A stretch of DNA of 64,000 nucleotides from Patescibacteria group bacterium (lineage in GTDB: Bacteria > Patescibacteriota > Patescibacteriia > JAHIZJ01): assembly GCA_028714495.1 (NCBI GenBank), contig JAQTMH010000001.1, positions 245,036-309,035 on the forward strand, written 5' to 3'. Below are positions 1 to 53,124 of the stretch, in pieces. Made by a program: the position numbers and the translations under genes. Position 1 is the stretch's first letter. Each line of letters opens with the position of its first letter. Below the pieces are notes generated by a model. It saw only the letters and a program-made list of their open reading frames with translations. It ran no database searches and was not told where the DNA came from.

Positions 1-38
1 AACGCCTCATCTAAATAGCTCCTAGCTATTGGGGCGTT

Positions 39-848: not shown

Positions 849-1115
849 ATATCCCCTCTCTGGGCCGGCAAAGGCACACGGGGTTATACCAACTGCGGGA
901 CCCGAAACGCCTGAGGAGAGAGCAACAAGCGCTCAAATCGCTGCAATCGGATCCGTAGACACTTTGCCGGCTTAGAGAAAGGACCTTTTCTGAATCAACC
1001 AGTATAATACTAATAAATTCGGAAAAGGTCCCCTGTACCGGAAGCGCAAAGCGCGACTGGTACAGGGGGTTATGGCTTCTCCTCAAAAGCCATCAGACTT
1101 GACGAACCAGCCTCA

Positions 1116-1745
1116 TCAGCACGCGACCCAGGCAACACCTGAATCGCCTTGTTCACGTTTCGTTCTGACCAGAAAGTTCTTGATCGCTTGGGCCTGCTTC
1201 AGCGAAGCTTGGTTAACGGCTACCACCTTCAGGCAATAGCCAAACGACTCGTGGGGTATAATCTGGCTGGTTACTTCGATGTACCAGCCACAGCCCCAGA
1301 TGCGGAAATTCCGCGGATCAGCCAGCGACAGCCTAATGCTGACACAGCTATCACTCAAACTCACGGTTTCGGACGCATCAGCCGTCAGCTCATCCAATGT
1401 CTGAAACGCAACCTGATCAGCTAGAGGATCTTTCGTCGGTACACGGCCCTGGGTCAGAAACTCAGCGGTGGCCTGAAGCGAGTAGCGCTCTCCAAAGAGC
1501 ATCGTTACATCGCCGCCACGTGTGGGCGCGATGTAGGCCCGCCTGCTGTAGCTGGTCGCCGGCAAACCAAGTTGTCTCGCCTGCACATCAAAGAGCTGGT
1601 TTAGCAACTCGGTCGCCTCGCTGGTGTCCATTTCGGTCTGATACACGACCTGGATCTGGGTCGTCTCTGGCTCGCCAGAGCAACCGAAGATCAGCGAAAA
1701 GGCTAGAGCCAACACGACGCCGCCAAACAACCTCATTATCTTCAT
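1116..1745 (-). CDS. hypothetical lipoprotein
   Basis: N-terminus MKIMRLFGGVVLALAFSLIFGC has a signal peptide plus lipobox (IFGC). No recognisable domain. Confidence 0.5.
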   Translation of the reverse strand: MKIMRLFGGVVLALAFSLIFGCSGEPETTQIQVVYQTEMDTSEATELLNQLFDVQARQLGLPATSYSRRAYIAPTRGGDVTMLFGERYSLQATAEFLTQGRVPTKDPLADQVAFQTLDELTADASETVSLSDSCVSIRLSLADPRNFRIWGCGWYIEVTSQIIPHESFGYCLKVVAVNQASLKQAQAIKNFLVRTKREQGDSGVAWVAC

Positions 1746-1919
1746 CCAGAACCTCCTTGTCCACTGAGAAACGTTCCCGAGCTCTCCACATCTTGGAAAG
1801 CCCTAACCTTCATATTCAAAATCGGGTTATGAATGAGCTTTTTTCCCTTCTGAATCTACGAAGCTTTTCTTCCTAGACTCGGAAAGGTGAAGGTGTTTTA
1901 GCTAAAGCTAGGTACACCC

Positions 1920-2951
1920 TCAAGACCTGTTCAATGGAAAGTCAAGAGCTGAGAAGACCTCTCGCCACCGGGCAAGAAACGCCTCCCATTTGTCCAACGG
2001 CACCTGGACCCTTGTTCTCAACCGACCGCTCACACCATCCGGAAGATGGACGCGGAGATCAATCTTGCCCCACCAGTCCCTCGGCAATTCGACATAGACT
2101 TGCTCGCCCATGTGACCGATGCCAATGACGCAGAGCAAGACGTTTCCGTGACGGCGCAGAACCTCATATCTCCAGGTGGGGAGAGAAACCTTGATGCCCG
2201 AATGGGCGGCCGGCCGAAGGTCAGAGAGCACCACCCGACCTGGCAGTTCTATGGCTTCATCAGCCAGCTGATAAGCCGCCAGTTTGGCCACGTAACATGC
2301 GGCTGAGACCTCGTATTTCAACTGATGGATCGTATCGCTGGCCTGGCAACCGCTGGCTACCCAGTCAGCAATGGTCTGGTAGACCCTCTGTTTCTCCCGC
2401 AGATGTCCTTCGGGGTCCATACTGAAATACGGTATTGTGTTGAGGCTTTCAACCAGAAGTCTGCCTACCCGACTCAGCCTAGATATTCCGTTGCTGGATC
2501 TCTCGCTGATGTCGGCATCATCCTCCAGACCCAGATACCAGGCACCGCAAGCCTTGAGAAAACCCAGGAAGCCGTCGTTGTCGGCGTGAAAAAGCACCAC
2601 GCTGACACCAGACTTCCTCCATTCATCACGGGTAATCAGATGGGCACACGAAGGCGCCGCGATTCGGTCAACCAGGCGGATTGCTTCGCCGAATCTCTGA
2701 CGCAATCCTTCGGCATTCTCCTTTTCAACTTGAACCTGGTTCAAATGATGGTCAGCGAAACACGCTAGCCGATGACCAGCCGCGATCAGTTGATCAATCA
2801 ACGCGCACATTTCAGTTGACGGTGCCAAGTCAATGCAGGCGAACCGGCTGCTGGGAGGCAGAGAGGCGACTAACTCTAGGCGATCCTTTTCCGTGATATA
2901 CGGCTGGATCGCGATGCCACGCACGCCGTTCAAATTCACCACCAGAACCAT
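1920..2951 (-). CDS. hypothetical protein (343 aa)
   Basis: Long ORF in the same orientation as its neighbours. Contains 'FADHH' and 'HADNDG' strings but in an order unlike DHH phosphoesterases. Function unknown. Confidence 0.45.
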   Translation of the reverse strand: MVLVVNLNGVRGIAIQPYITEKDRLELVASLPPSSRFACIDLAPSTEMCALIDQLIAAGHRLACFADHHLNQVQVEKENAEGLRQRFGEAIRLVDRIAAPSCAHLITRDEWRKSGVSVVLFHADNDGFLGFLKACGAWYLGLEDDADISERSSNGISRLSRVGRLLVESLNTIPYFSMDPEGHLREKQRVYQTIADWVASGCQASDTIHQLKYEVSAACYVAKLAAYQLADEAIELPGRVVLSDLRPAAHSGIKVSLPTWRYEVLRRHGNVLLCVIGIGHMGEQVYVELPRDWWGKIDLRVHLPDGVSGRLRTRVQVPLDKWEAFLARWREVFSALDFPLNRS

Positions 2952-3108
2952 GCGATCCCTCCGTTTCTTCGGCTGATGCCTCTATGGTTTTTGACAATGA
3001 GCTATCTTCTTCTGAACCCGCGAATCGTTATGATTCCCAGATTCAGGGAAAGGGGCGAACACCAGACGATATTCGCCCAATGAACAGACCTTCGTATGGC
3101 CAGTGTTG

Positions 3109-3576
3109 CTAGTAGTTCGACAGCGTCAAGACGACGCCGTCACCAGCCGGGCCTGATGTGGCCGTCTCGCCATACGCCTCAATCGTGTAGACGCCGGCTA
3201 CAAGCTGGTAGCCGATGTTGCCCTGGCTGTAGCCGAGCGGCCCAATCGTCATCGGCGCCTTGGTGAATGGGTTGTTCGGCAACACACCGCCGGTCCATTG
3301 CGACACGTCATTGAGCTGTTCCAATGTCGGATAGACGTCATCGTTCCGGACCGCAAAGTCCTCGACCACGAGCTGCGTCGAGTGGCAGTTCGCCTTGACA
3401 CTGCCTTCCTTGGCGCGGTTCACCATCGCGATGTAGTCCGGGATGGCGATCGCCGCCAGAATCCCGATGATGAGGACCACAATCATCAGCCCGATCAGAC
3501 TGAAACCATGGGAATGAGAACTCTTCATGTCCAGCTCCTCCTCTTTGAAACCGACTCTTTCTTCCGCCACTCTCAT
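3109..3576 (-). CDS. type IV pilin / pseudopilin (prepilin-type N-terminal methylation domain); likely start at internal Met MKSSHSHG (~3528)
   Basis: Translation has 'GFSLIGLMIVVLIIGILAAIAIP', the class III prepilin leader/cleavage motif G|F(T/S)LIxLMIV. Position +5 is Gly instead of the usual Glu. Confidence 0.7.
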   Translation of the reverse strand: MRVAEERVGFKEEELDMKSSHSHGFSLIGLMIVVLIIGILAAIAIPDYIAMVNRAKEGSVKANCHSTQLVVEDFAVRNDDVYPTLEQLNDVSQWTGGVLPNNPFTKAPMTIGPLGYSQGNIGYQLVAGVYTIEAYGETATSGPAGDGVVLTLSNY

Positions 3577-3771
3577 CTATCAGCCAACAGCCAACTCCGC
3601 AGGCCAATGCCTGACAGATAAATCTGGCTTGTCAATCTTAACGCGTGACCCGATGTTTGATGCAAAGAGCAATTCTTCCTCTGAGCGCTCAATCGTTTAT
3701 TGCGCAATCAAGAACTCGGAGAAAGGGGGTATTGCCAGTCAAACCAGCAAAATACCCCACGACCAGGCGAA

Positions 3772-4050
3772 TCACTGCCCTTGGTTAGGCAATTGAAGGC
3801 GGGAGATCAGGTGGTTCCTGTTGATCAACCAGTAGAAGATCATGGGTATTGTCAGGCAGAGCGACACCCCCGCATAAAATAGGAATGGTGGTTTACCTGA
3901 CAGTAAGTATGACAGCATGCCGAGTGTTGCCACAATGCCAGCGCCGACAACCTCATTCCAGATGGGCTTGGGCCAGCGCCACGACGCGTAGAGCCAGCCA
4001 GCCACCGGAGCTGCCAGCAACGCAATGAGATGGTACAGAGTCATAGACAC
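3772..4050 (-). CDS. small integral membrane protein (92 aa), hypothetical
   Basis: Three hydrophobic segments. Same strand as the neighbouring genes. Confidence 0.35.
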   Translation of the reverse strand: MSMTLYHLIALLAAPVAGWLYASWRWPKPIWNEVVGAGIVATLGMLSYLLSGKPPFLFYAGVSLCLTIPMIFYWLINRNHLISRLQLPNQGQ

Positions 4051-4266
4051 CTCCTGGATCGAGCCTGTTGCGAAAAGAAACTGTCAAAAGAGCTATCCTT
4101 CTCTGAAGTTATTATGGTACCTCTCCATAAAGTCGAGGAATAATAAATTCAGAGAAAGAGGGCAGAACCAGTTAAGCTTGCGCTTTTCCAGTTCTGCCCA
4201 AGGGGCAGTACCGGAACCCTAGAACCATTACGGTTCAGGGGACTGGTACTGCCCTGTGTTGTGAAG

Positions 4267-4899
4267 CTAGGACTCGGCGATGAAGTGGGCGTGGCTGCAG
4301 CGCTGGCATTGGGCCTTGGCGAGTGCCGCGTCTACTGCCGGACGATACCGAATGAGCGACTCGGGGAAAGCCTCGAGTGAGCCCTGGTAGAGCGTCTTGG
4401 CCACGATTCTGGCCAGGCGCTCCGCCTCGTCCTTCACCACCTCGCGCGACTGCACCCGAACCCGCGACCCCGTAGAACTGAGCCTGAGCTCGATCACGAC
4501 GATTCCGCCGGGCACCGAGAAGAGCGCGTGCGGATCATCCTGCTCCCGGCCCACGAAGAATGGCCGAAGCGCCTTGCCGGAGAAACCGCAGATGATCGTA
4601 GCCTGGCCGATCTCGCCGAGACCGCCGCCCTCCTCCGCAATCTGGATGAGCGGCGGCTGTCCGTTGACGCAGGACGGCATCTGGAAGACGCCATCCTGCC
4701 CCTCGACCTGCGGCAGGTCCACGACGACACCGGTGCGAGTCTCGTGAACCTCCACATCCTCCGCCCCCTGGTCCCAGAGCTGCGCGAGAATGGCTTCCCG
4801 ATTGCCCTGGGCGAGTTTCACGATGAGCTTCATCATGGCGATACCCCTTTCTGCTCGAACACCTAAACCCTTGGCAACAATTCCTTGTTGCCAGTTCAC
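4267..4899 (-). CDS. hypothetical protein (probable start at MKLIVKLAQGN...)
   Basis: GC-rich ORF of 210 aa. No recognisable motif. Confidence 0.4.
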   Translation of the reverse strand: MNWQQGIVAKGLGVRAERGIAMMKLIVKLAQGNREAILAQLWDQGAEDVEVHETRTGVVVDLPQVEGQDGVFQMPSCVNGQPPLIQIAEEGGGLGEIGQATIICGFSGKALRPFFVGREQDDPHALFSVPGGIVVIELRLSSTGSRVRVQSREVVKDEAERLARIVAKTLYQGSLEAFPESLIRYRPAVDAALAKAQCQRCSHAHFIAES

Positions 4900-5109
4900 A
4901 CCTGTCTGGGGCTGCTAGCTTCACTAATTGTAAAGAACCAACCCCCACACCAAATTCTTCAGAATAATTATTGAAAAATTTGGTGTGGGGGAACAAACTA
5001 TTCTACCTCAACTCTCGAAAAAAATCAAGGGCTGGAGTAGAACGGGGAAGAAGTGATTGGCTGCTTCCCCGTCAATGTGTCTCACTGTACGAGTAGGTCA
5101 TTTCACCTC

Positions 5110-5406
5110 CTAGGCCACCAGCAACAAAGGGTCGCCGGAAAAGGCCTGGTTGATGAGTGCGCGGATAGCGTGCTCATGGTGAATTCGACAAACATCCAGG
5201 TGAAGTATTTCTGCCACCTGGGGCACAAGATTCTCGATCGGGTATCCCCGATACCAGACCCACCCGTCAAGGTAGGCCTTGAGGACCGTTGCCGCTTCAA
5301 GCTGCGACCTGATGCGCATATCAAGCCCCCCTTCTGTGGAAGAGCCTTCCTCTGAACCTTGGACCATGATTGGTTCAAAGCTCGGAAGAAGTGGGGGCTC
5401 ACACAC
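5110..5406 (-). CDS. small hypothetical protein (~98 aa)
   Basis: ORF fills a 530-bp gap between flanking genes on the same strand. No motif recognised. Confidence 0.3.
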   Translation of the reverse strand: MCEPPLLPSFEPIMVQGSEEGSSTEGGLDMRIRSQLEAATVLKAYLDGWVWYRGYPIENLVPQVAEILHLDVCRIHHEHAIRALINQAFSGDPLLLVA

Positions 5407-5427
5407 AGTGTAAGCCCCCTCAAAAGA

Positions 5428-5913
5428 TCACTGTCGGTACCAGAGCTTGACAGTCAACCCTGGACAGATCATGTTCAGCTTCCGCACAGAGTCCCGGAAG
5501 TTCATGGCCGCCTCCCTTGACGGCCGCGGCTTGAAGCCAATGACCGCGTAGACTTCCTGATCAGTCATCTTTGGACCGGCTATCTTGTTGATATCCGAGC
5601 CCCAGGCGTCGTGAACCCAGACTACCAGACCCATGAACTTGATCTGGAAGGTAGGGTCAACCTCGAGCTTCTTCATGTCCACGCTCGGGTCAGTGCCGAG
5701 CCGAACAATGTGTACGACTTCAAAGAAGTAATCGTACAGCTCATACTTGCATCCTTCGAAGACAAAGGACGCACAAGCCTGTGTCCAGTCATCGACTGGC
5801 ACATTGATGCTGTCCAGCTGTGACGCTGTCAGCTCGATAGTGACGGTTTCCGCTCCTGCGTACGCCTGGCAAAATGCCAAGGTCGCGACCACCAAGATCA
5901 CCAAACTCTTCAT
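5428..5913 (-). CDS. secreted hypothetical protein (161 aa)
   Basis: N-terminal signal peptide MKSLVILVVATLAFCQAYAGA. Confidence 0.5.
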   Translation of the reverse strand: MKSLVILVVATLAFCQAYAGAETVTIELTASQLDSINVPVDDWTQACASFVFEGCKYELYDYFFEVVHIVRLGTDPSVDMKKLEVDPTFQIKFMGLVVWVHDAWGSDINKIAGPKMTDQEVYAVIGFKPRPSREAAMNFRDSVRKLNMICPGLTVKLWYRQ

Positions 5914-6169
5914 TTTAGCCTTCCTCCGTTTGGTACGGGCTGGTCATCGTTGGCCACCAGCAAGCCAGTGTCAAAGAGCATTCCTTCCTCTGAACCCTCA
6001 ATCCGCTATTCCCGATTAATATCAGGAGTCTTGGGATTAAGAGTTCGGAAGAAGTTCCCAGCACCGGAAATCCCGAAGGATAACTAGTGCTGGGAGCCCC
6101 GAACCGGAACCCTGTAACGAAGCGCTTCGCGCCTGGTTCAGGGGACTGGTTCGTGGAAGAAAGAGCAGA

Positions 6170-6556
6170 TCACAGATGATAGGCAACCGCACCCTGCTGT
6201 GGAATGGCCCACCAGCAGTCAACCTCGAATCGGTGACCATCATAGTTCCAGGCAGGCACCCAGACCTTGTATCGCGAGTAAACCTTCCCTGAATCAGTCG
6301 TCAGGTGATGGCACGCCCGGATGATGATCCCCCGGGCTTCAGCATCTCGGCTGAAGGCGCTAGGAAGGATGTAATCATTCTTGTCCTTTGGGGTCGCCGC
6401 GTCGGCATTGAACACCCAGACCGTGTCGCCGACGGCGAATTCAGTCTTGGCGAAGTTGATGTAGCCGGGCTCACTCGGTTGAGCCAGTTGAAGAACATCA
6501 GCCGCCGAGGAAGAAACCACGGCCATCGCGACCAGAAGAACCACTAGCCACTTCAT
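6170..6556 (-). CDS. small secreted protein, paralog family (EPG...VGDxVWV motif)
   Basis: Start MKWLVVLLVAMAVVSSSAA has an RBS GGAGGG 6 nt upstream (reverse complement of 6557-6566). Shares 'EPGY...FAVGDTVWVFN' with the 7414..7827 product. Confidence 0.55.
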   Translation of the reverse strand: MKWLVVLLVAMAVVSSSAADVLQLAQPSEPGYINFAKTEFAVGDTVWVFNADAATPKDKNDYILPSAFSRDAEARGIIIRACHHLTTDSGKVYSRYKVWVPAWNYDGHRFEVDCWWAIPQQGAVAYHL

Positions 6557-6671
6557 GATACCCTCCTGACGCATAGCGTCTGTCTTGAACCAGGCTGATT
6601 GGATTGACTTCAATCCATACCAACCCAGTTACTAACTTGTAAAGAGCTCCGCTTGAACCTGTCTTTAGTGG

Positions 6672-6830
6672 GGAACCCCGAACCAATTGCGCTAAAGCGC
6701 TTCCGGTTCAGGGCAAGCCCCGAACCGGAGTCCCGTCGAATGACAGAACGACTGGTTTGGGGTAAAGACAGGCTCGAGTGAAGCCCTGACCCCATACCGA
6801 AGCTTTAGCGCCTGGTACGGGGTCAGGGGG
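6672..6830 (+). repeat. compound nested-hairpin element (three tandem units), family 1
   Basis: Units of outer stem CCCCGAACC/GGTT(C/T)GGGG or CCCTGACCCCATACCG/CTGGTACGGGGTCAGGG around central palindromes GCGCTAAAGCGC and AAGCTTTAGCGC. Related copies at 976-1070, 4095-4258, 6054-6160 and 22300-22440. Confidence 0.6.
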
Positions 6831-7010
6831 TGATTTCTTGGCAGCTACGAGAGTCGAACTCGTCATCCTTCCTTGGAAGGAGCCCGAACACCCGGACGGG
6901 CTGACCACCGGGCCACTTTACGTCGGGAAGCCGCCTGATTTATTTCGGCAAGGAGATATATCCTCTCCCGTAACCCGAAATCTTGTTTCGGGTGGTGTTA
7001 AAAGGACGTT

Positions 7011-7085
7011 TCTCTTCCGAACCCGCGAACCTAGATGATTTCCAGACTCGGAAAAGTGGAGGAAGGGCAGGACTTCCTCCGAAGA
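7011..7085 (+). repeat. repeat family 2 (TTC(T/C)GAACCCGCGAACC...GGAGGAAGGGCAGGACTTCCTCC)
   Basis: Second copy at 9100..9172. Partial copy at 3007..3050. 3' part forms hairpin GGAGGAA-gggcaggac-TTCCTCC. Confidence 0.7.
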
Positions 7086-7153
7086 TGTTCAAAATGTGCG
7101 TTGGAGCTCTCGCGCCTGCCTTGTTCCGAAGAACAACGCGAGAGGATGCGGGT

Positions 7154-7456
7154 TTAGAACCAGAAGGTGATGCACCACACGAAGCTGGCAAGCATAGCCA
7201 CCAATCCCGTGCTGGTCTGGAGCCTCTGATCAGGGGCTTCGTTCAAAGACCATGTCCAGAGCCGAGTCGCCAGCGCGACACCCCCGGCAGACCCGAGCGT
7301 GCAGAACCCGAGCAGAGCATTCCTGAACCACATCATGATTCCCTCCTCGCAGCACATTGCTGCATCAGTTTCCATAAACCCCTTGGCGGACTCGCTATGA
7401 GCCGCCGCGACAACTACCAATACAACGCAAGGAAGTAGCGAGAGTAGGCTGCCCAC
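7154..7456 (-). CDS. possible small membrane protein (100 aa)
   Basis: Hydrophobic N- and C-terminal segments. Weak call. Confidence 0.25.
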   Translation of the reverse strand: MGSLLSLLPCVVLVVVAAAHSESAKGFMETDAAMCCEEGIMMWFRNALLGFCTLGSAGGVALATRLWTWSLNEAPDQRLQTSTGLVAMLASFVWCITFWF

Positions 7457-7827
7457 CTTTGAGGCAGGTTATACGCCTCATAGAGGTTGCCAAACTCTGC
7501 TTCCTCCTCGAAGTCCTCTCCCGACAGGGAGACAGCAACCCTGTAGAACCAGTAATCACCATACTGGAAGATCGCCACAACCCTTGCCAACGCGTACTCC
7601 TGCATGCAGGAATCGTCCGCGCCAGGGTACAACCCGCCGTAGGCGCATTCAGTTTCACCTACGTTCACCCACACCGAGTCACCGACCTCCAGCGGCTTCG
7701 AGTTGAAGACGCCGTAGGGGTAAAAGCCGGGCTCTACGTTCTGACCAAACGCCAACGGCGCCAGGACAGCAAAGAGTGAGGCAACGGCCAGACAGATCAG
7801 CACCCAACAGTACGTTCGATGCTGCAT
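7414..7827 (-). CDS. small secreted protein, paralog of 6170..6556
   Basis: Start MQHRTYCWVLICLAVASLFAVLA is preceded by AAGGAGGT RBS (reverse complement of 7833-7840). Motif 'EPGFYPYGVF...EVGDSVWVNV' is shared with the 6170 gene. Confidence 0.55.
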   Translation of the reverse strand: MQHRTYCWVLICLAVASLFAVLAPLAFGQNVEPGFYPYGVFNSKPLEVGDSVWVNVGETECAYGGLYPGADDSCMQEYALARVVAIFQYGDYWFYRVAVSLSGEDFEEEAEFGNLYEAYNLPQRWAAYSRYFLALYW

Positions 7828-7979
7828 TTTGGTACCTCCTTGATGGTTCGAGACCTCTAGGAGAATGATATTATCAATGTAATGAGCCTTTCTCCTACCT
7901 GAGCGCTGCAGTACAGAAGTACTGAAACGCTCGGGTAGGACCCGATGCGCACCAGAGGTGGCACGCATCGGGATGAACG

Positions 7980-8819
7980 TTAGAATGAGTAGGAGAATGA
8001 AACTGAACACTCGGCATGCTTTTCACGCGTGTCATAGTACGCGCGAAGAAAGCACTTCGGCGCGTACTCCGCAGTTGCGCCGACAAGCCATCGCGAGCCG
8101 CGCGCATCGCCGCAGTCGTACTGGGCATAGAGACGCGCCCAAGGGCTAACCCTCACGTAGTTCTGCAGGAAGTACGGAGCGCGTCCCTCCTGCTCCGGAT
8201 CAAACCAGCTTGCGCCGATTGCCGGGTTGAAGAACCGCATGGGTTCCCAAGTCGCGATTGCCGCGTACCCGATGTTCCTCTCCCAGCATGCCTTGACGGA
8301 CGCTGGGGCTCCGGCGAGCGAATCGGTCACCGCCACGTACGCCGCCCAGTGCCGGTCGTCTTTGAAACTGACGACCGTAGTCGTGAACGAGCTAACGATG
8401 TGCGTCGCGGACACGCCGAACTGATTTGACGAGAACTTGCAGTTCGCGTCAGGGTTCCGTGTCAGACGAAGCTCCTGAGGACCAGGGAAGACGGACTGGA
8501 TTGGCAGAGCTTGCTGGCCAATGGCAACAGCAGTCCTGCCGAATTCAGTCACGAACGTCTTCATCGCATACGCCTTTGTCAGTCGCACGCTGGTGACGCC
8601 CGTGCCGTCGATTTCCGCACGGAAGAACAGGGCGTGTGCCTTGTCTTCCTGACAGAGACCCGCCCGCAGAATGCCGAGCGTGTAGGCATGATCGTTGCTC
8701 CGGTCCGGCATGGACACGGAGCCGTACACGTAGTTGCTCGCACCGGCGTTCGCAGCCAGTACCAACGCGAAGATGATCGCGAACAGCATGGCGACTTTGA
8801 ACCGACAACCGGAAATCAT
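7980..8819 (-). CDS. secreted beta-rich protein, outer-membrane-protein-like (C-terminal ...FSYSF)
   Basis: Signal peptide MISGCRFKVAMLFAIIFALVLAANAGAS. Alternating hydrophobic pattern. Terminal Phe is typical of beta-barrel OMPs. Confidence 0.5.
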   Translation of the reverse strand: MISGCRFKVAMLFAIIFALVLAANAGASNYVYGSVSMPDRSNDHAYTLGILRAGLCQEDKAHALFFRAEIDGTGVTSVRLTKAYAMKTFVTEFGRTAVAIGQQALPIQSVFPGPQELRLTRNPDANCKFSSNQFGVSATHIVSSFTTTVVSFKDDRHWAAYVAVTDSLAGAPASVKACWERNIGYAAIATWEPMRFFNPAIGASWFDPEQEGRAPYFLQNYVRVSPWARLYAQYDCGDARGSRWLVGATAEYAPKCFLRAYYDTREKHAECSVSFSYSF

Positions 8820-8885
8820 TGATCCCCCCTTGTTTCTGCCGTTTTGGTAGACCGTTAGCGCACTTCAAGGAAGCCGCCTAAATCT

Positions 8886-9031
8886 CTCCACACCGAACTG
8901 GAGGTGAGTTTGTCCATCTTTGAGCCGAAGCTCGATGGACCGGCTGAACTTAGTGAAGGCGTTGAGTTGTTCACCCGACGCGATCACCTCGTCTAGCCAC
9001 TCTCTTCTCCCCTCCATGTCGGTGCGGAGAA
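8886..9031 (+). repeat. 143-bp direct repeat, copy 1
   Basis: Near-identical (one internal mismatch) to 10311..10455. A diverged third copy lies at ~10625..10770, sharing the core TTTGAGCCGAAGCTCG. Confidence 0.85.
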
Positions 9032-9238
9032 ACGGTAGTCGTTCCCCGACTTGATCGGGGAACCTAGAAATTCTACTTAGTGTGTGTAATAAATAACTTC
9101 TCCTCTTCTGAACCCGCGAACCGAATTGATTCCCAGGTTCGGAAGATAGGAGGAAGGGCAGGACTTCCTCCAAGAACGAATGAGCATAGTAATTCTCACA
9201 CCTGCCTGCGAGCTAAGCTCGATTTGTGAGAGGCGAGA

Positions 9239-10069
9239 TCACCGAACGTAGCAGTGGTACTCCTTCCAGAGGAAATCCCTCTCCTTCTGGGTGAGCCCGA
9301 GCTCACGCCCGGCGATATTGTACTCGTTGATGGCCCAAGACAATCGCAGTATGGCCCAGCCATACTGTTCCATATCCTGAAGGGAACGGGCATAGACGAG
9401 CACGTCCCGGCAGTCCTGGACCAGCTTGGCCCTGAACTGTTCCGGACTCAGGCCATAGTCCTGGATGGTCGTCCCACTGGCGTTCACCAGGTGGACGATT
9501 TCGCGACCGACGTCCCAGGGGTCATCGAGCATGATGGTGCCCTCGCCCTGTCCGATGTCATGGCCGCGGCGGGCGGAAATCGGCTGGTCCAAGCACTGGA
9601 TCAATTCGGTCGCGATGGTACGTCCGAGCCGGTTGTGTGCGGAGTGCACTTCGCTTGCGTTGACCCCGACGTCTTCCCAGGTGACATTCCAGTCACCGAG
9701 ATTGCGCATCGCCGATCCGACTTTGCGATACTGATCGAAGCGCTGGTCGAGGACTCCGTAGGAATCCTGCGCCATCTTCACTTCCTGCTCCCAGCTCGGA
9801 GACAGGAAGCCAGTGAAGACCTGCCGCATCTGCTCGGCGTACTGCGTGCGCTGTTCGAAAGCCTGGCGAGCTTCGTTGAGGGACACCTGTGCGGCCTTCA
9901 GGTTCTCGGCCTGCTTGTTCAGCGTGGCCTCCTTGACCGCCAGCTCCTCGCTCCATGAGTTCAGGTTGGCCTTCTGGTCGCCGAGGTGATGGAACCCGAC
10001 CAGCGTGATGACCAGAAGCACCGCCCAGACGATCCCGACTGCTCCAACGATTCCGATCCGCTTCTTCAT
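9239..10069 (-). CDS. membrane-anchored coiled-coil protein, hypothetical
   Basis: Start MKKRIGIVGAVGIVWAVLLVITLVG with AGGAGG RBS. Long Q/E/A/K-rich coiled-coil segment follows. Flanked by 143-bp direct repeats. Confidence 0.5.
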   Translation of the reverse strand: MKKRIGIVGAVGIVWAVLLVITLVGFHHLGDQKANLNSWSEELAVKEATLNKQAENLKAAQVSLNEARQAFEQRTQYAEQMRQVFTGFLSPSWEQEVKMAQDSYGVLDQRFDQYRKVGSAMRNLGDWNVTWEDVGVNASEVHSAHNRLGRTIATELIQCLDQPISARRGHDIGQGEGTIMLDDPWDVGREIVHLVNASGTTIQDYGLSPEQFRAKLVQDCRDVLVYARSLQDMEQYGWAILRLSWAINEYNIAGRELGLTQKERDFLWKEYHCYVR

Positions 10070-10310
10070 GACCTTCGGTCCTCCTTTGACAGCTTGACCT
10101 GCCGTCTGACATACCCCCATGCTTCATATCCGAGACCGATCATCCCGACCTTTCGACTTCTCTCAAGATCAGGACGCTCCCGCAACCCAGCACCACGTAG
10201 GGCGCCGGGCTCTGGGAGTATTTAATTGTCAAAGTTCTGGTAGCGCTCTCATTTGCAGGAATAACCATCCTTCATCCTTCATTCTTCCTTCTGAATTCTT
10301 AATTCTAAAT

Positions 10311-10455
10311 TGGCTTCTCTCCACCGAACTGGAGGTGAGTTTGTCCATCTTTGAGCCGAAGCTCGATGGACCGGCTGAACTTAGTGAAGGCGTTGAGTTG
10401 TTCACCCGACGCGATCACCTCATCTAGCCACTCTCTTCTCCCCTCCATGTCGGTG
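10311..10455 (+). repeat. 143-bp direct repeat, copy 2
   Basis: See copy 1. The two copies flank the 9239..10069 gene. Confidence 0.85.
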
Positions 10456-11252
10456 CGGAGAACAATCCTATTGCGTATCCCGAAATCTTGTTTCGGGTTT
10501 GTTGTAAAGAACGTGGTCTCTCAATAAGCAGAATGCATTATTTCCCTGCCAGCTCGAGGCCGGTGGACTCGGCCCTTTTGCATGGTTTGTGACCGCCTCC
10601 GGTCCTCGAATTGGCAGGGAAACAATTTGTCTAAAAAGCACTGATCTGGAGGCGAGTCCAAACGCCCTTTGAGCCGAAGCTCGGGCGCTCAAACTGAATT
10701 GTGTTGAAGCCATCGAGGCATGGCCCGATGAGATCAACTCCTTCAGCCTCCTCCCTCCTCCATATCAGTGCTATTTAACGTCGTTCATGGTCCGCCTTGG
10801 GCGGACGGCAATTTAAAATGGGTGACAGTTTGCTGCTGTCAAACCCGAGAAGAGAGTTTTCGACAGAAACAAACCACCACCCATTGATTATGAATGCCGG
10901 TTTTCCAACCGCAATTTGAAGCGATTGGCTCTCTCCTCATTTATTTTATGTAATGTGCTCGCGAACTCTCCCCACAAGATTCTTGAGCATAACTGGAGAG
11001 TATAGCGTACCAAAAAAGACCTGTCAAGACCCCATGAGATGATATTGGCTAATGTAAGCCAAAATATTTTATCAATTAATTTATTTATTGGGTTTTTTAA
11101 CATATTACTACGTAGGCGAGGTTGATCAACCTCGCCTGCTTTGGAAGAGCTTATTTACTATGGAATAGTTGCGCCGGGGTGGTTCTACGCGTTTACTTAC
11201 AAAAAAAACTGTGATAAAGTGACCGCGAAAGTGTTGTTTCGCGACTTTCTTT

Positions 11253-11693: not shown

Positions 11694-12155
11694 ATGAATA
11701 AAAAAGAGATTGTTCTAGTCCTGCACAATGTCCGGAGCCGTTTCAATGTCGGCGCGATTTTTCGAACCGCCGATGGCGCGGGTGTAGCCAAGATTTTTTT
11801 ATGCGGAATTACTCCGCGACCGCCCCACGATAAAATCGCCAAGGTCTCGCTCGGCGCCGAAAAATATATCCCATGGGAATATTACCTCCAAACCGTCCGG
11901 CTTCTAAAAAATCTCAAAAAGCTCGGCTATCAAGTAGTCGCCCTTGAACAATCCAGAAAAAGCCTTCATTATAATAAGTGTGGGTCCGTAAAGCCAGTGG
12001 CCCTGGTGGTTGGCAATGAAATTAGCGGTTTGCCTGCGACTATCCTGAACCTAGCCAACCAAGTAATAGAAATACCTATGCACGGTCAGAAGGAATCGCT
12101 CAACGTGGCTGTGGCAACTGGAATCGTTCTCTTTAATATGATAAATACAAGGTAA
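11694..12155 (+). CDS. SpoU/TrmH-family RNA 2'-O-methyltransferase, minimal TrmL-like
   Basis: 153 aa with a SPOUT core only. Motifs 'FNVGAIFRTADGAG' and 'LVVGNEISGLP...ESLNVAVATGIVLF'. Lies immediately upstream of tRNA-Leu(UAA). Confidence 0.65.
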   Translation: MNKKEIVLVLHNVRSRFNVGAIFRTADGAGVAKIFLCGITPRPPHDKIAKVSLGAEKYIPWEYYLQTVRLLKNLKKLGYQVVALEQSRKSLHYNKCGSVKPVALVVGNEISGLPATILNLANQVIEIPMHGQKESLNVAVATGIVLFNMINTR

Positions 12156-12206
12156 GCGAGCCTAACTAGTCCGCCTCTGGCGGAAGGCTCGCCTCCGAGA
12201 ATACAT

Positions 12207-12279
12207 GCCGCGGTGGTGGAACCCTGCACCATGTAAGGTGCAGGGCTCCGAACCTGGCATGGTTCGAGGCTGGGTAAAA
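12207..12279 (+). repeat. tRNA-Leu 5'-end-derived hairpin element A
   Basis: Begins GCCGCGGTGGtGGAAC, which is the first 16-17 nt of the downstream tRNA-Leu. Continues into the hairpin CCCTGCACCatgtaaGGTGCAGGG and a second stem. Ends GGGTAAAA. Confidence 0.6.
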
Positions 12280-12311
12280 TTTAATAACAAATATTCTTTA
12301 GAATAGTTGGT

Positions 12312-12413
12312 GCCGCGGTGGCGGAACTGTCCCGTACCACAATGGGTACGGGACACCCAGAACTCCACGCAGTTCTGGGTGGTATCCGGCACCCAACGTG
12401 GTGCCGGGTAAAA
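12312..12413 (+). repeat. tRNA-Leu 5'-end-derived hairpin element B
   Basis: Begins GCCGCGGTGGCGGAAC, identical to the tRNA-Leu 5' end. Followed by three perfect hairpins (GTCCCGTACC/GGTACGGGAC, ACCCAGAACT/AGTTCTGGGT, CCGGCACC/GGTGCCGG). Ends GGGTAAAA. Confidence 0.6.
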
Positions 12414-12445
12414 TCACAAACTGCAAATTATTCAGCCCAACTGGA

Positions 12446-12532
12446 GCCGCGGTGGCGGAACTGGTATACGCGACGGACTTAAAATCCGTTGGAGGAAACT
12501 CCATGAGAGTTCGATTCTCTCCCGCGGCACCA
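12446..12532 (+). tRNA. tRNA-Leu (anticodon UAA), type II with long variable arm, CCA encoded
   Basis: Cloverleaf checked by hand. Acceptor GCCGCGG pairs CCGCGGC. Anticodon stem ACGGA/TCCGT with loop CTTAAAA. Variable arm GGAGgaaaCTCC. T-loop TTCGATT. 3' end ACCA. Confidence 0.85.
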
Positions 12533-12573
12533 GCTGGGCTGAAAAAAGACAGCGGGGAGAACGTGGAGTTTAT

Positions 12574-12906
12574 ATGCATTATGTGTACTTTCTTCTTTCT
12601 CCATTTTCTAGTAAAACATACGTTGGCCGAACAAATTCTCTCGTCAGGAGAATTGCCGAACACCGAAATGGTAAATGCTGGACTACGGTTCGAATGGGAA
12701 AATTCATAGTAATTGGCTACGAGGCCTTTATGTCAAAAAGTGATTCTTTTAGACGCGAGAGGTACTTCAAAACATCAAAGGGCAGATCAACCCTACGATT
12801 AATGTTCCGAGATAGCATCGCCACGACACTTTTCCCTAACCACGCTGGGTTCGGGGTACCTAGTACCGGAACGAAGCGACTGGTGATGGGTAAAATCCCA
12901 AAATAA
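12574..12906 (+). CDS. GIY-YIG nuclease-domain protein (small, stand-alone)
   Basis: N-terminus 'HYVYFLLS...KTYVGRTNSLVRRIAEHRNG' matches the GIY...YIG...R...E...N signature. Confidence 0.55.
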   Translation: MHYVYFLLSPFSSKTYVGRTNSLVRRIAEHRNGKCWTTVRMGKFIVIGYEAFMSKSDSFRRERYFKTSKGRSTLRLMFRDSIATTLFPNHAGFGVPSTGTKRLVMGKIPK

Positions 12907-12946
12907 TAAACAGCTCAAGTTTAACCGAGCCATTTTTAAAATATCT

Positions 12947-13984
12947 TTAAGACTTTTTCTCTTCGGATGACTGGCCAGCTGAATCGGCGGCCGTGGTTGT
13001 CTCAGCCATGGCGATCGGCAAGACAATCTGCCGGGCAATGATGCCTAAAAGTATCTGGTTATTGTAGCTGAATTCTCGTCCCCTCTCTTTGTCGCCCAGG
13101 AGAATCGCACCGACTACCCGATTGCCAACCTGCATCGGCACTCCCAGCATGTTCTGGCTGGAATATCCGGTTGCTAGATTTTTCTGCTTGCGGTATTGCT
13201 CTTTGACTATTGAAATCTCGCGTCGCGTGCGGTAGATCTGCCCGAGAATCGGGTCTTTAAATAAATCGATCTTTAAATTTTTGACGCGCTGGTTATTGCC
13301 ATAACCCCGGGCGTCCTGGATTACCACTCGGCCCTCCGCCGGGTAATAAAGGGCAAAGATGGCTTTTTGAGCCTTGATGATTTTCAGAATCGTGGTAATT
13401 AATAGGTCGGTCAAATTATCCAAATCCGAGTAAGAGGAGGCGATTTTGCCAGTCGAATAAATAGTTACTAGCTTGTTATTAGCGTGGTGGAGCCGTTCAG
13501 TCAAATTTTCTATGATGTTTGAATAAATCTTATTGACTATTTGAGAATAGTCTTCAGCCAGCTTCAAAAAATCCTTGCCTAGTATTTCAATCATGTCGCC
13601 TGACTCAGTCACCTCGCAACTATGCGAGTGTTTTAATTTTGGGTTAGTCAGAGCGCTCTCCACCGCGAAACTGTGCTTACCTAGAATCGCCAAAGTCTGG
13701 ACTTCTTCATTGAAAATCCGGTAGATGTGCGCTTGGCCGCTTAAGACGATAAAAAAAGATTTGCGGGCTTCTCCGGCTTCAAAAAGTATTTCGCCTTTAT
13801 TATATTTCTTGACTGTGATAATTTTGGCGAGTACCTGAAGCTCGGGGTCGCTTAAGCCCTCAAGAACCGGAATGTTTTGGATAATTTTCGTGTCAATCAT
13901 TCTAGTTAAGATTATATCAAATCCGAACCAATTAAGCCACTTCCTTGTCTTAGCCACCGGTAGCGAGTGAATCAATCTTGGCAA
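12947..13984 (-). CDS. cyclic-nucleotide-binding (CAP-like) + GAF domain protein
   Basis: N-terminal half has a cNMP-binding pattern (GEILFEAGE...FFIVLSGQA). C-terminal half is GAF-like. Start possibly the internal Met MIDTK (~13900). Confidence 0.6.
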   Translation of the reverse strand: MPRLIHSLPVAKTRKWLNWFGFDIILTRMIDTKIIQNIPVLEGLSDPELQVLAKIITVKKYNKGEILFEAGEARKSFFIVLSGQAHIYRIFNEEVQTLAILGKHSFAVESALTNPKLKHSHSCEVTESGDMIEILGKDFLKLAEDYSQIVNKIYSNIIENLTERLHHANNKLVTIYSTGKIASSYSDLDNLTDLLITTILKIIKAQKAIFALYYPAEGRVVIQDARGYGNNQRVKNLKIDLFKDPILGQIYRTRREISIVKEQYRKQKNLATGYSSQNMLGVPMQVGNRVVGAILLGDKERGREFSYNNQILLGIIARQIVLPIAMAETTTAADSAGQSSEEKKS

Positions 13985-39777: not shown

Positions 39778-39946
39778 GGCTTAAGTATACTCTTCTTCAA
39801 GAAATACCGTAGGCGAGGTTGACCAACCTCGCCTATGTAGTATTTACATTACTATGTCCTAATAAACGACCTTTATCCAAAAAAATGCCCGACCGCATGG
39901 TGGGTCGGGCTCTAGTAAGAACTCTCAACAGTCTTGGATCAAGGTA

Positions 39947-52113: not shown

Positions 52114-52127
52114 ATTTTTCAATGTTC
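52114..52127. promoter_or_regulatory. perfect 14-bp palindrome GTTCCACGTGGAAC (copy 1 of 3)
   Basis: Exact dyad. Copies at 52825-52838 (one mismatch) and 53125-53138. Each lies 50-90 bp 5' (on the minus strand) of an RNA-gene cluster. Confidence 0.5.
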
Positions 52128-52181
52128 CACGTGGAACAACCGACCAATCAACCAATTTACCAATTAACTAGCTTTGGTGCC

Positions 52182-52770: not shown

Positions 52771-52824
52771 GGCGGGCAGGTCTTACCGCTGGACCATAGG
52801 CCCTAATATTAGCTAATTTTCGAT

Positions 52825-53052: not shown

Positions 53053-53124
53053 ATAGGCTAGGGTAGGCATAATTAACCATTGCTAATCTGTTCTTTTATC
53101 TAATATTAGCAATATAACATATAT

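Follow-up and report, generated by a model that had tools for sequence, protein, structure and literature searches.

Orphaned tRNA-Leu 5' halves and conserved hairpins beside a minimal GIY-YIG nuclease gene in Patescibacteria: probable remnants of a selfish cassette

Introduction

To our knowledge, no function has been assigned to the UPF0213 family of GIY-YIG proteins, for which structures have been solved (1zg2, 1ywl). In fungal mitochondria, free-standing GIY-YIG ORFs such as that at Allomyces atp6 are said, in work by Paquin, Laforest and Lang from 1994 and 2000, to be accompanied by 'double-hairpin elements'. ORFs of this type reportedly bring a replacement copy of the host gene end, and the old end stays behind as a pseudogene. 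Related duplications of host-gene fragments have been described (PMC7315562). In T4-like phages, SegB of the T4 tRNA gene cluster is a free-standing GIY-YIG homing endonuclease (PMC2330249; review PMC2988022). UPF0213 (YhbQ-like) and Slx1 proteins have been classified among the GIY-YIG nucleases (PMC1564403), with structures in PDB 1zg2, 1ywl, 6seh, 4xlg and 7cq2, and in Patescibacteria group I introns occur in the anticodon loops of tRNA genes (PMC13011429). A literature search that covered few subscription journals found no papers tying UPF0213 to tRNA genes, and within the same coverage no description of the arrangement reported here in the literature on GIY-YIG, UPF0213, YhbQ or COG2827 with tRNA genes or Patescibacteria.

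Here we analyze a tRNA-Leu(UAA) locus in a Patescibacteria contig. Two short elements, A and B, precede the tRNA gene and a small GIY-YIG ORF follows it. We refer to the whole 64-kb stretch of DNA analyzed as the window, and we compare the locus with syntenic relatives, with 80 metagenome loci selected by GIY-YIG protein similarity alone, and with 482 kb of control Patescibacteria DNA.

Results

Elements A and B

The locus fills the gap, 792 nt in total, between a SpoU methyltransferase gene and a cNMP/GAF gene. The same locus in an independent Logan assembly is identical, which excludes an assembly artefact. From the upstream gene to the end of the tRNA region, the features are:

11694-12155, + strand: minimal SpoU-domain RNA 2'-O-methyltransferase gene, TrmH/RlmB-like (Pfam SpoU_methylase, 1.3e-36), a flanking gene outside the element
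12207-12222, + strand: unit A orphan 5' stub of tRNA-Leu, positions 1-16, with T at position 11 as in the L070 allele
12221-12246, + strand: unit A hairpin 1, F type, ACCCTGCACC atgtaa GGTGCAGGGC, perfect 9-bp stem, member of the GIY-linked family; its first 13 nt are identical to a hairpin at 62940
12245-12270, + strand: unit A hairpin 2, R type, GCTCCGAACC tggcat GGTTCGAGGC, resembling the L070 T-loop hairpin CCCCCGAATC ttgcat GGTTCGGGG
12275-12280, + strand: TAAAAT, remnant of tRNA-Leu linear positions 35-40 (anticodon TAA and loop), by comparison with the tRNA (...GGACTTAAAATCC...)
12281-12311, + strand: leader-like spacer of unit A, homologous to the intact tRNA leader (repeat D1, 12269-12329 versus 12403-12463, 70% over 61 nt)
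12312-12329, + strand: unit B orphan 5' stub, tRNA-Leu positions 1-18, 100% identical to the intact gene
12328-12355, + strand: unit B hairpin 1, F type, TGTCCCGTACC acaatg GGTACGGGACA, perfect 11-bp stem; homologous to L070 ATCCCGAACC acgatg GGTTCGGGAT, with two compensated pair changes
12354-12381, + strand: unit B extra hairpin, near-R type, CACCCAGAACT ccacgc AGTTCTGGGTG, perfect 11-bp stem; missing from L070 in the alignment and resembling GCCCTGAACT ccgcgt AGTTCAGGGC of L096
12384-12409, + strand: unit B hairpin 3, R type, ATCCGGCACC caacgt GGTGCCGGGT; L070 has ATCCGGCACC tggcgt GGTGCCGGAT, with the same 5' arm and one base changed in the 3' arm
12409-12415, + strand: TAAAATC, remnant of tRNA-Leu linear positions 35-41, by comparison with the tRNA sequence
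12416-12445, + strand: cassette-borne tRNA leader, of which 12428-12445 pairs with the trailer and extends the acceptor stem
12446-12532, + strand: intact tRNA-Leu(UAA) with encoded CCA, the copy now in use (ARAGORN; Rfam 61.2 bits)
12533-12546, + strand: trailer strand of the extended acceptor stem (predicted fold; inverted repeat I1)

Both elements open with the 5' end of the tRNA-Leu gene, as the initial annotation of this stretch had stated: GCCGCGGTGG(T/C)GGAAC is found at 12207, at 12312 and at the tRNA-Leu(UAA) start, 12446, and the 16-mer GCCGCGGTGGYGGAAC has exact copies at the same three positions. This 16-mer is not common by chance, a possibility that the annotation had raised against itself, with 0.07 copies expected per window and the observed count reached in 0 of 100 shuffles. 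Matches with two mismatches at 9980, 37923 and 44847 lie within coding sequence and were set aside as chance matches. We defined a tRNA as a cloverleaf with matching acceptor strands and either at least 29 bits to Rfam RF00005 or an ARAGORN call. The only call by either program is tRNA-Leu(taa) at 12446-12532 (61 bits), in agreement with the earlier statement that A and B are not complete tRNAs; neither has a tRNA match in Rfam even at E<=10, and the region around them matches no Rfam family except the true tRNA.

The motif GGGTAAAA, which the annotation took as the end of each element, is indeed present but is not an element terminus, since it consists of the anticodon TAA and the loop and stem bases that follow it. 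A and B both finish with GGGTAAAAT, which occurs a third time at 12888, where it falls within the last part of the GIY-YIG ORF. We considered GGGTAAAAT as a -10 promoter box and rejected it: a scan for -35/-10 pairs with 16-18 nt spacing found no promoter-like site in 12150-12600, and the motif is tRNA positions 35-41, the anticodon and loop of the interrupted tRNA. TAAAATC spans the tRNA-Leu anticodon and the 3' strand of its arm; each element is therefore the 5' half of a tRNA-Leu gene, orphaned and interrupted at the anticodon by inserted hairpins. By alignment, the stubs evidently comprise tRNA positions 1-16 or 1-18 plus 35-40 or 35-41, and the layout around TAAAAT in unit A recurs in L070, L072, L074, L075 and L118. 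A and B are leftover front ends of earlier tRNA-Leu copies, each with a conserved DNA hairpin pair; the alignment shows them as two left-hand junctions in series, the middle of the stub being deleted in each.

Folding reproduces the perfect hairpins reported in the initial annotation, two in A and three in B, with stems of 9-11 bp and 6-nt loops (fold stability z = -3.5 for A and -6.9 for B). Around the intact tRNA, leader and trailer form the inverted repeat I1 (25 nt, 88% complementary), whose pairing is also present in the predicted fold; the extended acceptor stem is kept in L070 with different bases.

Stub, TAAAAT and leader recur at periods of 105 and 134 nt, as could arise if replication slippage had tandemly duplicated the promoter-proximal part of the tRNA gene, with later drift and no connection to the nuclease. 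We give this account scarcely any credence, as drift would not yield perfect palindromes of a family common to unrelated tRNA/GIY loci, and L070 keeps a matching displaced 3' half past its GIY gene. Stub A, moreover, has a different functional allele: it carries T11, the L070 tRNA has T11 paired with A24, and the present window tRNA has C11-G24. An orphan fragment in L072 likewise has a different acceptor strand. These two cases are suggestive of import of a tRNA allele by co-conversion, and drift or other histories might also account for them.

The upstream methyltransferase

The 153-aa methyltransferase, named 'TrmH family' by NCBI, was initially described as TrmL-like. The NCBIfam models do not bear this out, with scores of 109.7 bits for RlmB, 79.4 for TrmH, and 32.2 and 20.9 for TrmL (cut-offs 190.6 for TIGR00185 and 282 for NF007683), all below the cut-offs of the respective models. 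The functional link proposed between a TrmL enzyme and its tRNA-Leu fared no better: a tRNA-Leu(taa) lies within 4 kb in only 1 of 60 GTDB relatives of the methyltransferase, on the opposite strand, and the adjacency is kept only in the three closest relatives. On this distribution, the position of the methyltransferase next to the tRNA is apparently only local synteny. The GTDB SpoU relatives, at 59% identity or less, are too distant for comparison of non-coding sequence, and closer relatives were taken from a protein search.

The GIY-YIG nuclease

The right part of the locus holds the following features:

12574-12906, + strand: GIY-YIG nuclease ORF of the UPF0213/Slx1-like minimal type (Pfam GIY-YIG)
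12832-12857, + strand: right-end hairpin, F type, imperfect, TTCCCTAACC acgctg GGTTCGGGGT, homologous to L070 CCCCGAACC gcgatg GGTCCGGGG
12891-12898, + strand: TAAAATCC, remnant of tRNA-Leu positions 35-42 (repeat D4, 12399-12420 versus 12881-12902, 86%)
12908-12935, - strand: terminator-like hairpin belonging to the convergent cNMP/GAF gene, marking the right-hand limit of the insertion

Pfam upholds the earlier identification of a GIY-YIG protein downstream of the tRNA (3.9e-11; 43.5 bits to PF01541 over residues 1-71, against a gathering cut-off of 22.6). The domain occupies codons 1-83 (12574-12822), and the final ~27 codons run into the hairpin region. Homologues are 82-91 aa long, and every residue invariant in the family is present in the window protein, which has the motifs YVY at 3-5 and YVG at 16-18 and, in common with the rest of 24 sequences, R26, H30 and E62. 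The predicted model has an overall pLDDT of 84, exceeding 90 over most of residues 1-80, with a disordered tail; it has the beta-beta-alpha-alpha-beta-alpha fold, and its best Foldseek matches are UPF0213 1zg2, Slx1 and the I-TevI catalytic domain (probability 0.96-1.0 for the closest). The nearest sequence match is also 1zg2 (8e-10). Judging from a dN/dS of ~0.10 against L070, the family-invariant residues and the predicted fold, which is that of UPF0213/Slx1, the nuclease gene is evidently maintained. Searches of phage and plasmid collections found no homologues of the nuclease. The gene is uncalled among the gene calls of this NCBI assembly.

Empty and filled sites in syntenic relatives

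The gene order NUDIX-SpoU-gap-cNMP/GAF is syntenic in three relatives, which we designate L067, L069 and L070. L067 is an empty site, with only an intact tRNA-Leu in a 166-nt gap at the same position between SpoU and cNMP/GAF. L070 has a single unit, consisting of tRNA positions 1-36, two homologous hairpins, TAAAATC, leader, full tRNA, GIY ORF, a hairpin, and tRNA positions 47-87, this last 3' half having a hairpin inside its T loop. L069 has a 27-nt stub broken up by hairpins and no GIY gene. With the same flanking genes, the site is thus polymorphic for presence and absence, empty in L067 and filled in L070 and the window.

The cassettes of the window and L070 can be aligned over a stretch that starts with the last hairpin and includes the tRNA and the GIY ORF. 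Where L070 keeps tRNA-Leu positions 47-87, the window has only TAAAATCC at 12891-12898, apparently the sole residue of the displaced tRNA 3' part. The comparison thus shows that 12207-12898 (690 bp) is a composite insertion into a tRNA-Leu(UAA) gene that once stood uninterrupted in the gap from SpoU to cNMP/GAF. A weak repeat match to the left of it (D2, 12159-12185, 70% over 27 nt) is at most a doubtful candidate for a fourth stub of greater age; in L067 a comparable native hairpin directly follows the SpoU stop codon. Between the window and L070, amino-acid identity is 71% for the cassette and 72% for the flanking genes, a matching divergence that fits long vertical residence as well as recent mobility. 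Despite saturated synonymous divergence between the two, stem pairing is kept by compensatory changes.

The initial annotation had offered two alternatives: leftovers of site-specific integration that recurred at the tRNA 5' half, possibly with involvement of the GIY-YIG nuclease, or miniature elements targeting tRNA genes. The empty-site relative, the single-unit relative and dozens of unrelated GIY loci of the same kind speak for the former; the latter falls, since each element is an orphaned tRNA 5' half with cassette hairpins.

Integrative elements usually leave partial tRNA duplicates beside a complete tRNA gene (10.1101/2022.07.05.498093), and A and B could on that ground be att-site scars left by integrase-mediated integration and excision of a prophage or ICE. 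We regard this as very improbable. The ORF and gene lists contain no integrase or recombinase ORF in or beside the locus, from SpoU to cNMP/GAF; each unit measures 105-134 nt and the complete insertion ~690 bp, short of kilobase scale; the duplicated part is the 5' end; and the architecture accompanies an 83-aa nuclease gene in 80 loci, the nuclease being unmatched in the phage and plasmid collections. A group I intron at 35/36 was also considered and rejected, with no match to Rfam group I ribozyme models in the window at the gathering threshold or in 12100-13000 at E<=10, units that are too short, and no 3' exon.

GIY-YIG genes and tRNA genes across metagenomes

A tRNA lies within 300 nt of the GIY-YIG gene in 50 of the 80 metagenome loci, and all of these neighboring tRNAs are on the same strand as the nuclease (64, against 0 on the opposite strand). 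Near the GIY gene, tRNA density is 1.47 per kb, and the 482-kb control set has 0.033 per kb. Many loci, among them L074, L118, L086, L132, L103, L092, L131 and L072, have exact tRNA fragments on the flanks of the GIY gene, in the form of stubs of 12 to 71 nt that may be 5' or 3' fragments. Fragment breakpoints fall in or at tRNA loops in 21 of 25 cases (p = 1e-5), the loop being D, anticodon or T. L074 has two tandem units inserted at the same anticodon position, and a Phycisphaerales genome has a tRNA-Asn followed by two hairpins, the GIY gene and an orphan 3' part. The tRNA targets include more than 20 isoacceptors.

These loci show a recurrent cassette of three parts: a minimal GIY-YIG nuclease (~83 aa) of the UPF0213/Slx1-like type, two perfect hairpins arranged with dyad symmetry, and a tRNA copy, whole or partial. 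The cassettes lie within a tRNA gene or directly beside one, in the same orientation, with pieces of the displaced gene apparently left as orphan stubs.

The hairpin family

A search with the hairpin motif gave 53 matches in GIY loci and none in the control DNA; the window has four matches, all inside A and B. Most copies (42 of 53) lie within 150 nt of the GIY ORF, and adjacent pairs are always F then R (8 to 0), mostly just upstream of the ORF. The strict motif occurs in only 21 of the 80 GIY loci, the others having different or long-loop hairpins, or none. Covariation was found at 8 of 10 stem pairs, with 106 double-change cells versus 32.7 in shuffles and 0 of 500 shuffles as high. Fold-back (snap-back) repair was rejected as the origin of the hairpins: their arms are unlike the flanking tRNA sequence, and loop sequence is conserved from one locus to the next; the hairpins are thus inherited and not made anew.

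An alternative reading takes the hairpins as independent MITE- or REP-like palindromic elements that insert at TA or at tRNA-like loops, the GIY-YIG gene being only a frequent neighbor or one possible mobilizer, and A and B stubs colonized by chance. It accommodates the TA that brackets each hairpin in tRNA-Leu type loci (CTTA|F|TA|R|TAAAATC), the one hairpin that B has beyond those of L070, the hairpins within orphan T loops in L070 and L152, and the stubs and hairpins that lack a GIY gene, namely those of L069 and those following tRNA-Arg(tcg) in the window. Independent insertion is nevertheless unlikely in our judgment, given that motif copies are confined to GIY/tRNA loci, absent from the controls and from the rest of the window, and so regularly placed next to the GIY ORF. 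Outside the Leu type the TA bracket is missing, and the first hairpin begins at the discriminator base of tRNA-Asn or tRNA-Ser.

A and B might instead be functional structured RNAs derived from the tRNA-Leu precursor, such as tRNA-like decoys, processing or stability signals, or regulators. Their predicted folds are highly stable, their stems are preserved by the compensatory changes between the window and L070, and they lie on the same strand between SpoU and the tRNA and are therefore probably transcribed. We consider an RNA role quite improbable all the same. The loop of the second hairpin is the reverse complement of the first, so the pair is two-fold symmetric as duplex DNA, a symmetry that RNA function does not need; the stubs vary too widely in length and in the tRNA end that they retain; no Rfam family matches; and the close relative L067 lacks the elements. 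Mismatches in the stems (9 G-T/T-G and 5 other among 345 pairs) do not separate DNA-level from RNA-level hairpins.

Discussion

We conclude that A and B are probably the stubs left when a selfish GIY-YIG cassette carrying its own tRNA copy inserted repeatedly into the tRNA-Leu gene. The most likely mechanism, inferred from architecture alone, is homing-type invasion with tRNA replacement. The nuclease and tRNA would be co-transcribed, and the nuclease would cleave the DNA of tRNA genes where loops are exposed or where a hairpin or cruciform has formed. The break would be repaired off a cassette-bearing copy, with conserved tRNA sequence as the homology, and repair would copy the cassette into the site. 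Because the cassette supplies a working tRNA, the host would suffer no loss; since the tRNA, once restored, could be attacked anew, repeated invasion would stack stubs, A first and then B. The hairpins would be a cis element of the cassette, under selection, either as a substrate of the structure-specific nuclease or as a disruption of the old target or homology that prevents re-cutting or deletion of the cassette.

Several points count against this model. The strict hairpin motif is missing from most GIY loci, hairpins also occur where there is no GIY gene, and the divergence of the cassette fits vertical residence equally well. The restored tRNA is identical to the presumed target, so that a carrier would be exposed to continual self-cutting, and the A and B stubs are 16-18 nt long versus 35-36 nt elsewhere, so that an extra deletion has to be assumed.

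More tentatively, and with somewhat less than even confidence, we propose that the ~83-aa structure-specific UPF0213-type nuclease and its hairpin pair constitute a previously unrecognized bacterial selfish element that invades tRNA loops, substitutes its own tRNA and moves between distant lineages, with stub-and-hairpin units such as A and B as non-autonomous or fossil forms. Movement between distant lineages would be possible because the tRNA gives universal homology arms. If true, this would provide a concrete role for the widespread small protein family UPF0213, and would explain many of the orphan tRNA fragments and odd hairpin clusters beside tRNA genes in uncultivated bacteria, which confuse tRNA annotation. 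Imported copies could then replace resident tRNA genes with a nuclease as the driving activity and without any integrase, which would be a new cause of turnover among tRNA genes. Recognizing its targets by DNA structure or through a hairpin partner, such a bare 83-aa nuclease might also serve as a minimal model or reagent.

Several known systems share parts of this arrangement. The group I introns of Patescibacteria occur in the same phylum and at nearly the same site, anticodon loop position 35/36, but there is no ribozyme here and the units are only 105-134 nt; since the remainder of the tRNA is missing from the interrupted copies, they could not be restored by splicing. Prophages and ICEs that target tRNA genes also carry a gene-restoring part and leave a partial duplicate, but they rely on tyrosine or serine recombinases, measure kilobases and tend to duplicate the 3' end, and in all three respects they differ from the locus described here. 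REP/RAYT and IS200/IS605 systems resemble the cassette in combining short palindromic hairpins, conserved loops and covarying stems with a small nuclease gene; their nucleases belong to the HUH/Y1 class and not to GIY-YIG, tRNA genes are not associated with them, and the interaction of nuclease and hairpin is putative here. The UPF0213 and Slx1 proteins share the minimal GIY-YIG domain with no DNA-binding extension. Slx1 cuts branched and stem-loop DNA but requires Slx4 and a RING/PHD domain, the latter missing here.

SegB is alike in being encoded by an intronless GIY-YIG gene among tRNA genes, and is proposed to spread by cleaving alleles without the gene, after which it is copied in along with flanking tRNA sequence (co-conversion). 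It is larger and phage-encoded, whereas the protein described here is a bare ~83-aa catalytic domain encoded in bacterial chromosomes with no phage or plasmid match, and the cassette sits inside the tRNA gene, partly duplicates it and carries a conserved double hairpin. In the Allomyces-type elements, as in the cassette, an invading nuclease gene carries a substitute for the displaced part of its target, the displaced fragment persists alongside, and small double hairpins are found at insertion sites. The two differ in nuclease subfamily and in target, which is mitochondrial protein genes in the fungal elements and bacterial tRNA genes here.

Elements A and B are displaced halves of tRNA-Leu(UAA)

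The locus comprises the following features, with tRNA positions counted linearly:

11694-12155 (+), SpoU gene
from 12207, unit A: tRNA positions 1-16, two hairpins, tRNA positions 35-40
from 12312, unit B: tRNA positions 1-18, three hairpins, tRNA positions 35-41
12446-12532, intact tRNA-Leu(UAA)
12574-12906 (+), GIY-YIG ORF

The 16-mer GCCGCGGTGG(T/C)GGAAC, expected by chance 0.07 times per window, occurs exactly at 12207, 12312 and 12446, the last being the start of tRNA-Leu(UAA), which bears out the initial annotation that A and B share the 5' end of this tRNA. Allowing two mismatches adds three window matches, all inside coding sequence. A and B had also been described as hairpin-bearing elements other than tRNAs, and both points held: ARAGORN made no call, Rfam returned no tRNA match even at E<=10, and on folding A gave two and B three perfect hairpins, with stems of 9-11 bp and loops of 6 nt. 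The TAAAAT(C) that closes each element is the tRNA-Leu anticodon TAA followed by the rest of its loop and the start of the stem, as found in the gene's internal sequence ...GGACTTAAAATCCGTT..., and the spacer after A and after B shares homology with the intact tRNA's leader (61 nt, 70%). A and B are orphaned 5' halves of tRNA-Leu, carrying at the anticodon the hairpin pair of a cassette (GIY-YIG gene, hairpin pair, and whole or partial tRNA copy). Linear positions 35-42 of the tRNA recur as TAAAATCC within the GIY-YIG ORF tail (12891-12898). The entire stretch of the locus reads identically in an independent Logan assembly.

The upstream gene, previously taken for TrmL-like, reached 32 bits with the TrmL model, whose cut-off is 190; it encodes a bare SpoU domain nearest to RlmB/TrmH.

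Empty and filled sites in relatives

With the SpoU gene as query, a protein search located three relatives at ~72% identity, all with the gene order NUDIX, SpoU, gap, cNMP/GAF(-), UDG(-).

Content of the gap in the three relatives
L067: 166 nt, sole content an intact tRNA-Leu(UAA); the empty site
L069: 27-nt 5' stub (orphaned tRNA-gene piece) broken by two hairpins, then tRNA; no nuclease gene
L070, left part: tRNA positions 1-36, two hairpins, TAAAATC, leader, full tRNA-Leu
L070, right part: GIY-YIG ORF, hairpin, tRNA positions 47-87 with a further hairpin in the T loop

In L070 the cassette lies within an older tRNA-Leu gene, at its anticodon loop, and both displaced halves of that gene have been kept. 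The alignment of L070 with the window spans the last hairpin of B, the leader, the tRNA, the GIY-YIG ORF and the first downstream hairpin. The first hairpin of B corresponds to the first of L070 with two pair changes, both fully compensated, and the last hairpin of B matches the second of L070 in its 5' arm and differs by one base in its 3' arm; relative to L070, the window has in addition the middle hairpin of B and all of unit A. The window locus is the filled counterpart of the empty site in L067. Stub A and the L070 tRNA have T at position 11 (T11 pairs with A24), where the present gene has C11-G24, which suggests that stub A derives from another functional allele than the current gene.

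Leader and trailer of the cassette tRNA (12428-12452 and 12522-12546) pair with each other and with the ACCA end, extending the acceptor stem by ~12 bp. This extension is kept in L070 by different bases and absent from the native tRNA-Leu of L067 and L069; similar pairing surrounds window tRNAs near 53052-52980 and 52674-52565. The stub in L069 (4467-4548) is broken by GC-rich hairpins of another type, CCTGCCTG tcgg CAGGCAGG and one longer, which resemble CCTGCCCGCC motifs of the window's tRNA-Ala nest.

The GIY-YIG protein

The ORF downstream of tRNA-Leu was confirmed as a GIY-YIG protein, as first annotated, with every family-invariant residue present. Homologues are 82-91 aa long, so the 110-aa window ORF is the domain plus a read-through tail; in the predicted structure residues 1-90 are confident and the tail is disordered. 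Between the window and L070 genes dN/dS is ~0.10 (dS 2.4, saturated). Among solved structures, the closest are two uncharacterised UPF0213 proteins, BH0048 and EF2693; Slx1 and the I-TevI catalytic domain come next. Searches of phage and plasmid collections found no homologue of the nuclease. GGAG lies 7 nt ahead of the ATG. The ORF is missing from the available gene calls for the NCBI assembly, and some homologues in other assemblies carry false N-terminal extensions of translated tRNA sequence (e.g. WRNWQTR).

The same architecture at many tRNA genes

We examined 80 metagenome loci chosen by protein similarity alone from at least 468 relatives. A tRNA lay within 300 nt of the GIY-YIG gene in 50 of the 80; these tRNAs covered more than 20 isoacceptors and all were on the strand of the nuclease gene (64/64). 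tRNA density was 1.47/kb; control Patescibacteria DNA, over 482 kb, had 0.033/kb. The nuclease gene is bordered by exact partial copies of the neighbouring tRNA, in two layouts: 5' fragment, GIY-YIG gene, full tRNA (L074, L118, L086, L132, L103, L127), or full tRNA, GIY-YIG gene, 3' fragment (L092, L131). Of 25 breakpoints, 21 lay in or next to a D, anticodon or T loop (unpaired fraction 0.41, p = 1e-5). L074 has two tandem units (double hairpin, GIY-YIG gene, tRNA positions 1-35) at the identical anticodon position, the pattern that re-invasion of a restored gene would give, and in L072 a double hairpin stands on each side, and the acceptor strand of the orphan 3' part is unlike that of the functional copy. 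A complete Phycisphaerales genome carries tRNA-Asn, two hairpins, the GIY-YIG gene and an orphan tRNA-Asn 3' part, extending the family beyond Patescibacteria. This nuclease family is found with the same architecture at many tRNA genes.

Within 400 nt of GIY-YIG genes, the density of perfect hairpins is 6.5 times higher. Those of the family are closed by ACC/GGT or ACT/AGT and have a loop of 6 nt, which in the first hairpin (F) is A[CT][GA]NN[GA], typically ACGTAG, and in the second (R) its reverse complement, typically C.ACGT. Adjacent pairs run F then R in eight cases and the reverse in none, making the pair two-fold symmetric as duplex DNA. The motif matched 53 times at GIY-YIG loci (42 within 150 nt of a GIY-YIG ORF), four times in the window, all within A and B, and never in the 482 kb of control DNA. 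Among 52 distinct copies, chosen for partial pairing, 8 of 10 stem pairs showed changes on both sides; with the same selection, double-change cells numbered 106 against 32.7 in shuffles (0 of 500 as high). The strict motif occurs in only 21 of the 80 loci; others have long-loop or other mini-hairpins, also paired within a stub loop, or none.

Another type of double hairpin (6-bp stems, 3-nt loops; TGGGCC caa GGCCCA and TCAGCC tgg GGCTGA) interrupts the D loop in 5' stubs of tRNA-Ser and tRNA-Cys directly before the nuclease gene, ~30-70 nt upstream of its start (L104, L112, L129, L130, L133, L143, L144).

Other tRNA loci and repeats in the window

Nested tRNA-Ala fragments occupy 52803-52389 (-):

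52803-52779 (-), tRNA-Ala 5' piece
52760-52726 (-), tRNA-Ala 5' piece, break at anticodon 35/36
52711-52675 (-), tRNA-Ala 5' piece, break at 37/38
52657-52582 (-), intact tRNA-Ala(cgc)

The 3' partners follow the intact gene in reversed order, with ends at 52477 and 52389. Complementary leader and trailer bracket every level, and an 8-bp hairpin, GCCCCGCC atgc GGCGGGGC, replaces one T arm. The nest lacks a GIY-YIG gene and looks like serial tRNA displacement of the kind at the Leu locus. Nearby, 52184-52226 duplicates the tRNA-Ala 3' end and trailer at 52559-52601 (43 nt, 95%), and 52912-52935, a T-arm-like piece downstream of tRNA-Arg(cct), is a 24-nt copy (92%) of 52406-52429.

Downstream of tRNA-Arg(tcg) (62801-62874, +), the region 62875-63052 holds two hairpins and an orphan tRNA end, and would be a nuclease-less form of the same architecture:

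62940-62964 (+), hairpin ACCCTGCACC atgac GGTGCAGGGT, first 13 nt identical to hairpin 1 of A
within 62875-63052 (+), long-loop hairpin TCTGAACC...GGTTCAGA
63038-63052 (+), orphan tRNA 3' end with CCA

The 18-nt palindrome TTGTTCCACGTGGAACA occurs at 53123-53140, 52823-52840 and 52122-52139, upstream of tRNA-Arg(cct), the tRNA-Ala nest and an ORF-less stretch, each time followed after ~10 nt by a TTGCTAATATTAG-like sequence; it may be an operator and promoter common to small-RNA genes. The ORF-less stretch (52100-51780, -; ~320 nt) is GC-rich and apparently structured, had no Rfam match at E<=1, and is a candidate non-coding RNA, either undescribed or divergent. Another perfect palindrome, (T)AGGCGAGGT tga(t/c)ca ACCTCGCCT(A), is present at 11114-11137 and 39810-39835 and has no relation to the tRNA hairpins. 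GC content is 0.53-0.59 over the first 10 kb (1-10500) and 0.43-0.52 over most of the remaining sequence; the high-GC part could be of foreign origin, or result from a join made in binning or assembly.

Proposed mechanism and known systems

We favour homing-type invasion with tRNA replacement. The nuclease would be expressed from the tRNA transcript, as suggested by the uniform co-orientation of neighbouring tRNAs and by the GGAG before its ATG, and is predicted to cut tRNA-gene DNA at structured loops. Repair off a cassette-bearing copy, with the conserved tRNA as homology, would install the cassette, and the imported tRNA would keep the host viable while presenting a fresh target, which would yield serial stubs. 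Counted against this mechanism are that a carrier would have to escape self-cutting, that hairpins stand without a GIY-YIG gene in L069 and at the window's tRNA-Arg, that the window and L070 cassettes have diverged as much as their flanks, and that the stubs of A and B are shorter than stubs elsewhere. A structure-specific, Slx1-like nuclease may use the hairpins as its substrate or bind to them; another possibility is that they disrupt the old target and its homology.

A literature search of incomplete coverage found no description of this arrangement, and an earlier account is possible. GIY-YIG ORFs of fungal mitochondria bring a replacement gene end, with double-hairpin elements. Together with these, the closest known systems include free-standing GIY-YIG homing endonucleases of the type of T4 SegB, which lies among tRNA genes (PMC2330249), and integrase-type elements that duplicate part of a tRNA gene (10.1101/2022.07.05.498093). 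The present case differs from these systems in its bare UPF0213-type nuclease, its bacterial chromosomal tRNA targets, its breakpoints in tRNA loops and its conserved, dyad-symmetric hairpin pair.
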